From: Candidatus Eiseniibacteriota bacterium
GTDB lineage: Bacteria; Eisenbacteria; RBG-16-71-46; CAIMUX01; VGJL01
Length of the DNA: 64,000 nt
Direction: 5' to 3'
Assembly (NCBI GenBank): GCA_041946735.1
Contig: JBHGAY010000025.1
Coordinates: 9,249-73,248 of the forward strand
Shown: positions 4,341-48,274 of the stretch, piece by piece
How the letters are laid out: every line of letters begins with the position of its first letter
How positions within the stretch are numbered: the stretch's first letter is position 1
Position numbers and translations under genes: made by a program
Notes under the pieces: generated by a model
What the model was told of the DNA's origin: nothing
What the model saw: only the letters and a program-made list of their open reading frames with translations
The model's database searches: none

Positions 4341-5531
4341 ATGCGGAGCCTGATCGTCCATGGCGGAGCCTGGCAGATTCCGGACGAGGAGATCGGCGCG
4401 CATCGGGAGGGACTGCGCCGGGCGCTCGCTCGCGGCGTCGCGCTCCTCCGCGCGGGCCGTCCCGCGCTCGACGTCGTCGTGGAGACCGTCGCCGTGCTCG
4501 AGGACGATCCGACCTTCGACGCCGGGCGAGGCTCCGTCCTGAACCTGGACGGGCGGATCGAGATGGACGCAGCCGTGATGGAAGGGCGCGGCCGCCGCGC
4601 CGGCGCCTGCGCGTGCGTGACCGACGTGGCCCATCCGATCCGGCTCGCCCGCGCGATCCTCGAAGATGGCCGGGCCGTCCTGCTCGCCGGCGAAGGCGCT
4701 TCGCGCTTCGCGCGCGCCTGCGGCATCCCGCCCTGCTCGTTCGAGGACCTGCTCGTGCCCCGGGAGGTGCGCCGCAAGGAGGAGATCGACCGGCTCCGCG
4801 CCTACGAGACGCGCATGGCGTTCGACGGCAGCCTGCGGGCGCCGGGCGAGAAAGGCGAGAGGGGCGAGAAGGGCCAGAAGGGCGGGAAGGGCGAGAGGGC
4901 CGGGAAGGGCGAGAGAGGCGCAAGAGGCGAGGGGCATCCGAGAGGGACGGTGGGAGCCGTCTGCTTCGACGCGGCCGGAGAGATCGCCGCCGCGACGTCC
5001 ACGGGGGGCGCACCGGACACGTGGCCCGGGCGGGTCGGTGACAGTCCGATCCTGGGCGCCGGCACGTGGGCGGAGGAAGGCGCGGGAGGCGCGAGCGCGA
5101 CCGGCTGGGGCGAGGCGATCCTGCGGGACCTCCTCGCCTATCGCACGGTCCAGGCGATCGACAGCGTCACGATCCTCTGGCGCGAGGGGGCCGGGCACGC
5201 AGGCGGATCGAGCGAGCCGGCTCGTCGCGCCCCCGCCGAGTCGCCTCGTGCGGCTGCCGCGGCCGCCGCTGCTCCCGCCGCTGCCACCCCCCTCGACCCC
5301 AACGCGCCGATCACCTGGGGGCCGGTCGTCTCCGGCACGCCCGGCTCGCCGGCCGCGCGCGCGGCGCTCTCGGCGATCGAGAGCTTCGCTCGTGGAGTCC
5401 GCGGGGTCGGCGGCGTCATCCTGCTCGGCCCCGACGGGACCCCGGGGTTCGCGTTCAACACCCCGCGTATGGCGCGCGGGTACTGGGTGGAGGGGATGGG
5501 AGAGCCTTGGATCGACACGGAGCCGGCCTGA
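4341..5531 (+). CDS. Isoaspartyl peptidase / L-asparaginase (Ntn hydrolase)
   Basis: LIVHGGA, LEDDPTFDAGRGS, EMDAAVM, G|TVGAV nucleophile, TSTGG, GRVGDSP, SATGWGE, FNTPRM. Start at ATG 4341 inside the longer 2754..5531 ORF. Confidence 0.92.
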   Translation: MRSLIVHGGAWQIPDEEIGAHREGLRRALARGVALLRAGRPALDVVVETVAVLEDDPTFDAGRGSVLNLDGRIEMDAAVMEGRGRRAGACACVTDVAHPIRLARAILEDGRAVLLAGEGASRFARACGIPPCSFEDLLVPREVRRKEEIDRLRAYETRMAFDGSLRAPGEKGERGEKGQKGGKGERAGKGERGARGEGHPRGTVGAVCFDAAGEIAAATSTGGAPDTWPGRVGDSPILGAGTWAEEGAGGASATGWGEAILRDLLAYRTVQAIDSVTILWREGAGHAGGSSEPARRAPAESPRAAAAAAAAPAAATPLDPNAPITWGPVVSGTPGSPAARAALSAIESFARGVRGVGGVILLGPDGTPGFAFNTPRMARGYWVEGMGEPWIDTEPA

Positions 5532-5974: not shown

Positions 5975-7015
5975 TCACTCGAGCCGGATCAGCTTGCGCT
6001 GCACCGTCCCCTCGCTCGTCGTGAGCCGGGCGAAGAGGATTCCGGGACCGCCGGCCTCCGCGCCGCGCGCAGCATCGAAGCGCACCGTGTGTTCGCCGGG
6101 AGCGCGCGAGCCGTCGACGAACGTGGCGATTCTCCGTCCCTGGACGTCGAACAGCTCCAGCCGGATCGGATCGCGCGACGCGGCCGGCGAGACGGCGAAG
6201 ACGATCTCCGTCGAGACGCGGAAGGGGTTGGGTTGCGCGCCGAGAATCGCCGAGGCGAACGCCGTCACCGGCTCGCCGACGCCCATCGCCGGAGGCAGCT
6301 CCTGGAGGCGGGCGCCCTGCACGATCTCTAGATCCCCCTCGTGCTCCTGCAAGAAGGCGATCACCTTCAGATGGTCGCTGTGCCAGGACGGCTCCATCGT
6401 GACGTAGAAGTCGAAGACCACGTCGTCCCCCGGACCGGAGAAGGCGACGGGCCGCTCGACGATCTCGCGCGTGACGCGGTCGAGGAGGAATCCTTCCGAC
6501 CAGACGCTGTCCTCGAGAACGAAGAAGTAAGCGCGGGGATCATCGAACACCGCGGGATCGAGGAGGCGCAAGGTGGAATGCACGCGCACGCTCGCGTCTC
6601 CGATCTGATAGATCCCCTGGATCATGACGGGGCTCATCCCGCCCGTCTCGGCGATCCGCAGGTCGATCTTCTCCCCGAGCAGGGCCGCTGTGCCTTCACA
6701 GCCATCGATCCCTTGGTAGTAGCGGCTGCCGTCGATCCGCACGTAGGGCCACAGGTAGATGCCGTACCAGGCAGCGCGATGCTGCGCCTCCGGGATCGCG
6801 AGCGCATCGCACCAGTGCTCGTCGAACCAGAGAATGCGATCGCTTCCGTACGTCGCCTCGACCATCTGCAACCCGCACCGGGTGTCCCAGCAGGGAGGTC
6901 ACCCGAAGTAGTCGGCGAAGTGCTCGAGAACGAGAAGCTTCGGAACGCCCGCGGAGCAGAGCGAGATCGACAGCGCAGTCAGGACGGCCATGGAGACGAT
7001 GACCTTGCGGAGCAT
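5975..7015 (-). CDS. Secreted Omp28-related thioredoxin-like protein with FlgD/T9SS-like CTD; probable selenoprotein (UGA at codon 39, U-P-P-C)
   Basis: ATG 7015 with AAAGGGGGAG RBS; signal peptide MLRKVIVSMAVLTALSISLCSA; LVLEHFADYFG-TGA(6901-6899)-PPC continues in frame into ORF 5975..6871. Omp28-like VIAFLQ...EIVQGA; CTD QPNPF...LELFDVQGRRI...KLIRLE. Confidence 0.8.
6866..6893 (-). promoter_or_regulatory. Candidate bacterial SECIS hairpin
   Basis: Downstream of the UGA: CUGC...ACCC-GGUGC-GGGU-U-GCAG, with a G-led apical loop about 20 nt after the UGA. Confidence 0.55.
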
Positions 7016-7165
7016 CGCTCCCCCTTTCTGTCGTGTCGGGGCGGGGCGGAAGATGGAGTCCCCGCCGCTCGTCCACGGCGGGGAATATTCTCCTCTCTAC
7101 CGTCCAGAAGGGCAATCCGGACGGGAGGGGCGGGAAGGGCGGAAAGGGCGGAAAGGCCGGGGCGA

Positions 7166-11011: not shown

Positions 11012-11331
11012 GCCCGACGAACGGCCGGATTCTAGGAGAGGGCAGGACGTCGCGCAAGAGCGCGAAAAGCCGCTCGCCTCGCATACCGCTCGTGATGCCC
11101 TTCTTCATGACTCCAAGCTGCGAAAGCGCGTATCGCGACCGTCATGACTTGGGAATCACGCAACGGAATTCGCGATGCGAGAGCGGGCCGACGCGACGTG
11201 AAAACGAGGAAGGCGAGCAAGCGTCGCGTTGTCCTCCTTGAAGCGTTCCGCTAGCTTGCTGGCGTGCCACCGTTCCGCGGCTTCCTCCATGGGAGCCGCC
11301 TCATGACTGCGTGATCTGCATGGAGGCATGC

Positions 11332-11808
11332 ATGAGAAGGTTGCTGCTGTCGTTCTCGATCTGTTTGCTCCTGTCCGGATGGGCGGGCGCCGCGCTGGCC
11401 TTGCCCGACTTCTACGAGGCGGCGTTGACGAGCGAGCAGGAAGTCCCACCGAACGACTCGCCCGGCTACGGCGTCTGCAGCATCACACTCGTCGACGAGA
11501 ACACGATCACCTTCCGCCTGGAGTTCGCCGATCTGACGAGCCAGGCGGTCGCGGCCCACATTCATCTCGGCTACGCCGGGCAGAACGGGCCGGTCCTCTA
11601 TCCTCTTTCGGAGGTGCCTTTCGATTCTCCGATCGAGGGGACGATCGACTTCGATCCGCAATACCTCGACGAGCTGGAGAGCCAGGGGCTCTACGTGAAC
11701 ATCCACACCGTGAACTATCCGAACGGGGAGATCCGCGGACAGATCTGCCACTTCCCGGTCGCAACCGAGGAGACGAGCTGGGGCAAGGTGCGCTCTCTCT
11801 ACCGCTGA
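11332..11808 (+). CDS. Secreted CHRD-domain protein with C-terminal SWG motif
   Basis: GGAGG RBS; signal peptide; QEVPP, AAHIH, LYVNIHTVNYPNGEIRGQI; ends PVATEETSWGKVRSLYR. Confidence 0.9.
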   Translation: MRRLLLSFSICLLLSGWAGAALALPDFYEAALTSEQEVPPNDSPGYGVCSITLVDENTITFRLEFADLTSQAVAAHIHLGYAGQNGPVLYPLSEVPFDSPIEGTIDFDPQYLDELESQGLYVNIHTVNYPNGEIRGQICHFPVATEETSWGKVRSLYR

Positions 11809-20578: not shown

Positions 20579-20650
20579 TAGCGCTACGGGGATTCGAACC
20601 CCGGTTTGATGGCTGAGAACCATCCGTCCTAACCCCTAGACGATAGCGCC
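20579..20650 (-). tRNA. tRNA-Glu (CTC), 3' CCA not encoded
   Basis: GGCGCTATCGTCTAGGGGTTAGGACGGATGGTTCTCAGCCATCAAACCGGGGTTCGAATCCCCGTAGCGCTA; anticodon arm GATGG-TT-CTC-AG-CCATC; T-loop GTTCGAATC. Confidence 0.95.
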
Positions 20651-24066: not shown

Positions 24067-24140
24067 TGGCTGGGGAGCAGGGACTCGAACCCCGGTTCCA
24101 TGATCCAGAGTCATGTGTCCTACCACTGGACGACTCCCCA
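24067..24140 (-). tRNA. tRNA-Gln (CTG), CCA encoded
   Basis: TGGGGAGTCGTCCAGTGGTAGGACACATGACTCTGGATCATGGAACCGGGGTTCGAGTCCCTGCTCCCCAGCCA; anticodon arm CATGA-CT-CTG-GA-TCATG. Confidence 0.96.
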
Positions 24141-47401: not shown

Positions 47402-48274
47402 CTAGCGGTAGGTCGCCCTGATTGCACCCCAACTTCGGATCTCCACGGCCACCGGAACGCACTCGTTGGGCATACAGTCGCTCCACGCGCCCTGCGGCAC
47501 ACCTCCCGAAGCGACGCATTCCATCTCGACCAGCTCCATGCAGCTCCCGTCCGCGAAGCAGCAGGCGAAGACCGGCGTGTTCGGGCAAGGATTGGGCTCA
47601 CACAGCGTCCCCGGACCTTCCCACGTCCACGAACCACCCGCCGCGTAGCACTCCAAGTAGCTCACGGCCCGGCAGACGCCGTCGAGAAAGCAGCACGCCC
47701 CGGGGACCGTTTCGCACCGATCCGGCTCGCACGCATGACCGTCGATCACACCGCCGTCGTTCAAGCATTCCTCGGGTAGCAGGTAGAGTTCGCACGAGCC
47801 GTCCTCGAAGCAGCAACCGACGAGCGAGCAGGAGCAGGGATTCGGGTCGCAGGGGACTCCCTCGGACCACGAGCAGTAGTCCGGGCGCGCCAGGCACTCC
47901 ACCTCCGTCTCGACGAAGCACTCGCCGGCGTCGAAACAGCAGGCGCCTTGCGGCGACGCGCAGAGATTCGGCTCGCAGAGGTTCTCCGCGGGAGCGCCAC
48001 CCAAGTCGTAACAATCCTCGCCGCAGTAGAAGACGCGGCAGGATCCATCCGGAAAGCAGCAGCCGACCGGCTGCGGGCACGGGTTGGGGTCTCAGTCGGC
48101 TCCAGGGTAGAAGGCGCAACCGCCGGTCGCCCAGCAATCCGCCTCCTCTACCATTTGGCACGATCCGTCCGGGTAACAGCAGATGCCCACCTCGGCCTTC
48201 GCAACACCGGCAACGGCACCGGCCAGCACGATGGCCGACACGACAGCGACACCGACGATCGTCACTCGATACAT
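47402..48274 (-). CDS. Secreted Cys-rich repeat protein (six GxCC..DGxC repeats) with in-frame UGA at codon 61 and C-terminal SWG motif
   Basis: ORFs 48092..48274 and 47402..48004 share a frame, joined by TGA(48094-48092)-DPNPCPQPVGCCFPDGSC. The TGA sits at the Cys of the C[DE]PNxC repeat motif. Ends PVAVEIRSWGAIRATYR. Confidence 0.75.
48059..48074 (-). promoter_or_regulatory. Candidate SECIS hairpin
   Basis: GCAGCC-GGUC-GGCUGC; stem starts 17 nt after the UGA; GGUC loop resembles the E. coli fdhF SECIS loop. Confidence 0.45.

Follow-up and report, generated by a model that had tools for sequence, protein, structure and literature searches.

A multi-copy family of candidate exported selenoproteins related to GOS_C and HBP35 in one order of Candidatus Eisenbacteria

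Described relatives and layout of the gene

The protein group closest to the gene studied here is already catalogued as 'Omp28-related selenoprotein' (NCBIfam model NF045500), which corresponds to the hypothetical UxxC protein GOS_C listed in a 2026 review (Table 1 of PMC13188914). Zhang and Gladyshev predicted GOS_C in 2008 on the basis of 74 marine reads and described it as thioredoxin-like with a UxxC motif; their account of it gives no functional evidence (PMC2398784). Selenocysteine (Sec)-containing thioredoxins and DsbA-like and TlpA-like UxxC proteins, listed in the same Table 1, likewise have the UxxC motif where helix 1 of a thioredoxin fold begins and a SECIS element within the coding region (PMC13188914). 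HBP35 of Porphyromonas gingivalis (PDB 5Y1A) is built from a signal peptide, a thioredoxin domain, an Ig domain and a T9SS tail; its thioredoxin activity, measured as insulin reduction, requires C48 and C51, and its last five residues are required for transport to the surface (PMC2907840). The Omp28 outer membrane lipoproteins (PF11551, NF033782, PDB 2R2C) share the Ig-like domain.

The gene is located in the window, the whole stretch of 64,000 nucleotides that was analysed, and comprises the following features.

5975–7015, minus strand: whole gene, from ATG 7015 to TGA 5977–5975; 346 aa if the TGA at 6901–6899 is Sec
7018–7026, minus strand: purine-rich ribosome-binding site AAGGGGGAG before ATG 7015, identified from the sequence; in homologues, too, the start lies some 40 codons ahead of the TGA
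6950–7015, minus strand: predicted Sec/SPI signal peptide, residues 1–22, recognized by eye (basic start, hydrophobic core, end ...CSA/GVP)
6899–6901, minus strand: in-frame UGA, read as putative Sec39, first residue of U-P-P-C
6890–6892, minus strand: Cys42, resolving Cys of the UxxC motif
6871–6883, minus strand: putative SECIS hairpin ACCC-GGUGC-GGGU, overlying codons T45-R46-C47-G48 plus the initial base of the Leu codon that follows
6644–6949, minus strand: thioredoxin-fold domain, about residues 23–124, its helix 1 opening with UxxC (model and fold search)
6698–6700, minus strand: Cys106, likely structural disulfide partner of Cys47 (6877–6875)
6287–6634, minus strand: Omp28-type Ig-like beta-sandwich, about residues 128–243 (2R2C match and model)
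5978–6232, minus strand: T9SS type A C-terminal sorting domain, residues 262–346, QPNPF...KLIRLE (marginal TIGR04183 match)

Like NF045500, the protein is thioredoxin-like and has a UxxC motif in which a single putative Sec occupies the same position. Two GOS_C sequences (Dataset S2 of PMC2398784) displayed the same motif run when compared by eye (EDFTG..UPYC, EWH, R..LY.VGGIPH and VGG), and the NF045500 model matched 54 of the 56 aligned family members with a best E of 1.3e-23. Against the model's cut-off of 200 bits the gene's protein scored 12.2 and a paralogue 60.8, so that, despite its kinship to GOS_C, the gene falls outside formal NF045500 membership; none of 121 genomes of the phylum had a protein reaching this cut-off. 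Compared with GOS_C, the Eisenbacteria clade adds an R-C-G element with a second Cys pair, has up to six Sec copies per genome and carries a T9SS tail, GOS_C, which derives from marine reads, having been compared on the motif run alone. Compared with the Sec thioredoxins and the DsbA-like and TlpA-like proteins, the redox domain is joined here to an Omp28 Ig domain and to a tail for outer-membrane sorting.

The likeness to HBP35 extends over the entire domain order and the length (344 aa in HBP35), but HBP35 has Cys48/Cys51 where the gene has Sec39/Cys42, the two belong to different phyla, and hemin binding and activity have been demonstrated for HBP35 only. As the two proteins are 14% identical, the shared fold is no proof of a shared activity. 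The gene differs from the Omp28 lipoproteins in having Sec in place of Cys, in its T9SS tail and, as judged by eye, in its apparent lack of a canonical lipobox. The NF033782 model matched 41 of the 56 members, and the cut-offs of both lipoprotein models lay above the scores obtained (for a paralogue 28.1 against 150 for NF033782 and 34.2 against 34.9 for PF11551, with no match for the gene's own protein). By these comparisons the gene is a divergent, multi-copy branch of the GOS_C/NF045500 group that would work like a Sec version of HBP35. The novelty that the preliminary description had attached to an Omp28-like selenoprotein was over-rated, since the NF045500 (GOS_C) family was already catalogued.

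A term search of the main text of PMC13188914 found neither T9SS nor FlgD. Our literature search returned no paper that connects type IX secretion with bacterial selenoproteins (one listing came up and was unrelated), and none on Omp28 selenoproteins, on surface selenoproteins, on selenocysteine in Eisenbacteria or on T9SS in Eisenbacteria. The BSepDB paper and one of its supplements do not mention Eisenbacteria, GOS_C or Omp28, and the database itself may list such genes (PMC13326102).

The in-frame UGA codon and its hairpin

The longest table-11 reading frame begins at TTG 6871, downstream of the TGA, as in the ORF track from which the preliminary description started. Its proposal that the frame continues through one TGA to an ATG preceded by a ribosome-binding site was borne out: between 7015 and 5975 the frame is interrupted solely by the TGA at 6901–6899, and the site at 7026–7018 was found in front of the ATG. 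The resulting 346-aa product has Sec39 in the context LVLEHFADYFG-U39-P-P-C42. The truncation that had been expected of standard annotation was also encountered. A near-identical database protein (99% identical, the sole match of a word-indexed protein search) begins at M51 and is 296 aa long, and 105 of the top 150 profile matches among cluster representatives start after the Sec column. The full-length relatives within the same 150 have Cys at this column, save one with Ala and one with Ser. These last two (P0004 and P0034) lie near the gene's clade in a quick tree and are possibly redox-dead forms.

The TGA itself was examined in sequencing data, as had been advised. A contig from a second study spans 6834–7097, and thus the codon, at a depth of 10.8 with no differing letter; the four partial reads found in a raw-read run all missed the codon. 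No RNA sequencing run containing the gene was listed among the sequencing-run matches.

Homologues were collected as 95 domain matches from loci L010–L078 and the gene's own genome, and 94 rows were kept after one frameshifted fragment was dropped; these rows and their TGA genes stem from 33 related genomes. At the Sec column 86 of the 94 aligned homologues have TGA and eight have TGC, all in the XxxC register, the Cys rows including one partial copy and one distant match of 24 bits. The predicted pairing of UGA with Cys was thus found, with no Trp at this column. In the 56-row alignment U39, C42, P90 and G102 are invariant, Cys42 in 56 of 56. The protein was matched in 33 of 41 related genomes at E ≤ 1e-15. 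With a profile of 56 rows (E ≤ 1e-30) matches were obtained in all 20 sampled genomes of the same order and in none of 100 from other families of the phylum, and two close named records belong to Candidatus Eisenbacteria. In the genomes sampled, the Sec family is restricted to one order of Ca. Eisenbacteria.

The host genome contains six Sec copies, namely the gene and five paralogues with TGA at the same column, and one further paralogue with Cys. Among the 86 TGA rows 26 have a short and 56 a long architecture, and the quick tree grouped the gene, at a support of 99, with three other short forms, the motif of this clade being FG-U-[PQ]PC. In the same tree the Cys forms are scattered among the TGA forms, which suggests repeated reversion from Sec to Cys. 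Tandem arrays of two to four long-form paralogues were observed at L063 (G004:C6:964000-973500), L040, L044, L047, L048, L052 and L091; one copy at L063 is broken by a frameshift after 121 aa, and Sec and Cys copies adjoin at L040.

The host genome, which is 94.8% complete, has selA, selB, tRNA-Sec (72.1 bits, cut-off 47) and selD, all above cut-off, so the search for Sec machinery that had been recommended gave a positive result. The host selD gene itself has an in-frame TGA. Among the related genomes selA was detected in 38 of 41, including 30 of 30 near-complete ones, and the two in which it was missed among the 33 with a TGA homologue are 75% and 56% complete.

The hairpin begins 15 nt past the UGA and its loop 19 nt past it, so the distance of about 20 nt given in the preliminary description was fair. 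The Leu codon at its base is the TTG at 6871 that serves as the false start of the table-11 frame. According to the published bSECIS model, a loop of 3–9 nt with G in its first two positions is carried on a stem of 4–16 bp and lies 16–37 nt after the UGA (PMC13188914); the hairpin agrees with this in its GGUGC loop, its G[G/U] pattern, its stem of 4–5 bp and its 19-nt spacing. The loop sequence GGTGC is present in 74 of the 86 TGA genes and in none of the eight Cys genes, and an intact four-pair stem in 71 of 86 compared with three of eight. Where Arg-Cys is kept, the Arg codon in the loop is CGG in 78 of 81 TGA genes and CGC in all three Cys genes; genome-wide, CGG is used in 100 of 482 cases of Arg before Cys. 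In the ungapped 86-row alignment 92.9% of the stem cells are paired, with 21 two-sided changes, and the covariation of 0.189 lies above all 500 shuffles (0.073 ± 0.012) and above the values obtained with slid partners (≤0.071). As the covarying rows are related, these changes represent few independent events: the A-U pair that replaces the basal G-C is confined to the gene's own clade of four, where it is formed by Thr ACC and Leu TTG in 4/4 (genome-wide, TTG is the Leu codon after GGG in 112 of 2,019 cases), and the G-C swap accompanies a Gly-to-Ala change. A hairpin of similar form follows 176 of 79,330 genomic TGA triplets (0.22%), the pattern having been set after the hairpins had been seen.

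The folding energy of the hairpin was no better than that of shuffled sequences (z −0.35 to 1.35), and in naked RNA the gene's copy favours a competing hairpin that hides the loop, with a SECIS pair probability of 0.21. The SECIS fold became dominant (0.80–0.95) when 9–12 nt after the UGA were shielded and dropped to 0.16–0.01 when 14–16 nt were shielded. Covering 13 nt favoured the SECIS pair in 57 of the 86 TGA genes but in none of the eight Cys genes, the value for the gene being 0.55. The suggested folding and SECIS check thus stood as regards covariation and the fit to the bSECIS consensus, but not as regards folding energy, and the gene's own copy has a competing fold.

Taken from the sequence data, TGA 6901–6899 almost certainly encodes selenocysteine by SelB-dependent insertion. 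The codon could instead be a real stop: the gene would then be a pseudogene, the sequence would be misassembled, or translation would restart at 6871 or 6865 after a peptide of 38 residues. Gene callers treat the TGA in this way, as the M51 start of the near-identical database protein demonstrates, the gene's own copy has the competing hairpin, and HBP35 also yields shorter cytoplasmic forms (PMC2907840). Such a stop is nonetheless very improbable, given a TGA that 86 diverged genes of 33 genomes share at a single column and that, in the 94 rows, alternates with Cys only, a signal peptide that is conserved upstream of it and a hairpin that decays where Cys replaces Sec. A pseudogene and an assembly error were rejected on the same grounds together with the identical letters of the second-study contig. 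The chance that TGA is reassigned to Trp or Gly throughout the genome (tables 4 or 25) is next to nil: TGA ends 766 of 1,269 long training ORFs and is the commonest stop, which means that the code is not reassigned, the gene itself terminates with TGA, and its Sec column pairs with Cys, not with Trp or Gly. Reassignment, in favour of which we found nothing, was rejected on the basis of the stop-codon counts and the Cys pairing.

Fold, export and proposed function

A structural model of residues 23–245 was built from the 56-row alignment and reached a pLDDT of 96.7; a model of the full mature protein computed from its sequence alone was poor (pLDDT 38.4) and was set aside. HBP35 (5Y1A) was the top match in both fold searches, with a TM of 0.78 and E of 3.4e-11 in one and a Z of 23.5 and an rmsd of 2.2 over 213 residues in the other. 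The first half matched thioredoxins with Z 9–11 and the second half the Omp28 domain 2R2C with Z 12.4 and an rmsd of 1.8 over 100 residues, in agreement with the earlier description of an Omp28/thioredoxin-like protein. Pfam assigned no family to the gene's own protein, and PF11551 matched 24 of the 56 members, the gene's own protein not among them. The invariant Pro90 would occupy the cis-Pro position of thioredoxins. C47 and C106 are both present in 52 of the 56 rows and both missing in four, and cysteines kept or lost together in this way likely form a structural disulfide.

The signal peptide of homologues ends in AWA/GVP or ALA/SVP. Judged by eye, the segment I-S-L-C(20) does not fit what we take to be the lipobox consensus, and no canonical lipobox was recognized; the Cys at the lipobox-like place is absent from the three closest orthologues. 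The T9SS-like C-terminal domain of the preliminary description was recovered as a TIGR04183 match over residues 262–343 that is marginal (23.7 bits, cut-off 23), with no Pfam match; the tails of paralogues score as FlgD_ig. The host genome encodes SprA (356 bits, cut-off 200), PorU (596, cut-off 420) and eight PorV-family genes above cut-off, and 147 matches to the C-terminal domain were counted in it. The GldM and GldN models matched nothing in this 94.8%-complete genome, and the control genomes were likewise unmatched. The gene product thus combines the features of T9SS type A cargo, i.e., a signal peptide (by eye) and a type A sorting domain (marginal), in a genome with SprA, PorV and PorU. 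Export through the Sec pathway, followed by tail-dependent secretion and anchoring by PorU, is quite probable. As to other tails, a CHRD-domain exported protein at window positions 11311–11808 (plus strand) ends in a short ...TSWGKVRSLYR tail, and this short tail pattern ends 78 frames of the genome.

Upstream of the gene lies a MOSC gene; the downstream neighbour, on the opposite strand, is a GYD gene. A comparison of five orthologue loci (three with flanks of about 1.5 kb and two with 3 kb) showed no conservation of gene neighbours, so the context names no substrate, and a promoter and terminator scan gave nothing above shuffles. Elsewhere in the window, a low-complexity K/G/E-rich insert (GEKGERGEKGQKGGKG...) was seen at 4613–5041 within a frame that we take to be asparaginase-like, and tRNA-Glu (CTC) and tRNA-Gln (CTG) lie on the minus strand at 20579–20650 and 24067–24140.

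The reading that we prefer, with a probability of roughly 0.6 for the chain as a whole, is that of an exported Sec-containing thiol-disulfide oxidoreductase that forms a U39-C42 selenenylsulfide and acts on exported Cys- or Sec-rich proteins. SelB with Sec-tRNA would bind the GGUGC-loop hairpin 19 nt 3' of the UGA, which very likely leads to insertion of Sec39, and the 22-residue signal peptide would direct the chain through the Sec pathway into the periplasm. There the thioredoxin domain and the Omp28 Ig domain would fold as modelled, presumably with a Cys47-Cys106 disulfide. By analogy with HBP35 and from the content of the genome, the C-terminal tail would then address the protein to a T9SS-type translocon (SprA/PorV), and PorU would probably cleave the tail and anchor the protein on the surface. 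As a thiol-disulfide oxidoreductase, the protein would have its U39-PP-C42 site alternate between a selenolate/thiol and a selenenylsulfide state, and its most likely task may be to reduce or isomerise the disulfides of many Cys-rich exported proteins, or to repair them after oxidation. A DsbD membrane domain is present in the host genome; DsbD acts in the periplasm.

A true exported selenoprotein might also use its UxxC motif for the capture or uptake of a ligand such as heme, a soft metal or a thiol or selenol substrate. HBP35, the closest structure, is a hemin-binding protein whose loss by deletion makes cells grow more slowly when hemin is depleted (PMC2907840); the existence of six Sec paralogues, which vary in their xx residues and come in two architectures, would suit a diversification of ligands. 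Yet hemin binding by HBP35 is independent of its CxxC and maps to M135–P344 (PMC2907840), and invariance is seen here at the redox pair and at the Pro typical of thioredoxins, which leaves ligand capture unlikely, at about one chance in a handful. The oxidoreductase could also stay in the periplasm or be released unanchored, its tail being read by a reduced, non-canonical T9SS-like system. The silence of the GldM and GldN models would fit this, although they were silent in the controls too, as would a C-terminal domain barely above cut-off and paralogue tails scoring as FlgD_ig; set against these, the scores of SprA and PorU and the presence of PorV family members alongside 147 tails make such a location improbable.

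Other candidate selenoproteins and implications

A genome-wide read-through scan recovered known selenoprotein types with similar hairpins, named from their motifs (BCP-like peroxiredoxin, TlpA-like and protein-disulfide-oxidoreductase-like UxxC proteins, and SelD), and at least five other exported families with an in-frame TGA and a similar hairpin. The NCBIfam selenoprotein models gave no match for these five families.

One of them lies in the window itself. A Cys-rich repeat protein at 48274–47402 (minus strand) has a signal peptide, CCxxDGxC...C.PNPC repeats and a short SWG...YR tail, and its TGA (48094–48092) occupies the Cys place of the other repeats and is followed by the hairpin GCAGCC-GGUC-GGCUGC. 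A homologue in genome G005 is 65% identical, with TGA and hairpin in the same place (two of 35 genomes), and a third match (L132) is partial and without a stop. As this TGA occurs in two genomes only, it may be a shared nonsense change; the protein has no match in Pfam or NCBIfam. Genes for secreted beta-helix proteins that have U-P-[WY]-C and end in a T9SS tail stand in tandem at G000:C5:132097 and 130287 (minus strand) and at L086 and L094–L098, with TGA and hairpin in five of five matches and in four of 41 genomes. In the C-U family (G000:C38:704, plus strand; L087, L099–L113) a 646-aa exported protein has C-U-G and a T9SS tail; TGA occurs in 22 of 22 matches from 11 of 41 genomes, and a hairpin of the GCGGA-GGUC-UCCGC type in all 15 rows examined. 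A small exported family with a short SWG tail (G000:C45:59737, minus strand; L088, L114–L128) has TGA in 14 of 15 matches from 12 of 41 genomes, and its lone Cys form is without the hairpin. A second beta-helix type, an exported C-T-U protein (G000:C16:31215, plus strand; L085, L133–L134), has a seven-pair hairpin with a GUC loop and a short tail, and the same TGA is present in two of 35 genomes. Further in-frame TGA candidates were noted at G000:C71:109667, C7:65708, C61:4147, C30:36000, C24:33119, C12:257108 and C45:128031; judged from their motifs they are thioredoxin- or peroxiredoxin-like (TxxU, UxxC), and one CxxU gene has a T9SS tail.

Because most of the top database relatives lose both the signal peptide and the active site, an uncultured order has one of its core multi-copy families misread. 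The hairpin places a constraint on the protein sequence and thereby offers a natural test of it, as the choice of loop codon relaxes once Cys replaces Sec. With HBP35 as a solved and assayed Cys counterpart, the gene is a concrete candidate for a surface selenoprotein, and what is gained from Sec at a redox site on the cell surface becomes directly testable.

The families concerned number at least six: the thioredoxin family, the two beta-helix types, the C-U family, the small short-tailed family and the Cys-rich repeat family. All of them combine a signal peptide and a sorting tail with an in-frame UGA that is followed, at nearly equal spacing, by a GU-loop hairpin. We tentatively propose, at clearly less than even odds, that an entire selenoproteome is exported via a T9SS-type pathway in one order of Ca. 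Eisenbacteria, served by multi-copy U-x-x-C reductases or isomerases of the HBP35-like kind. If true, these bacteria would maintain a selenium-based redox system outside the outer membrane that guards exported selenols and disulfides.
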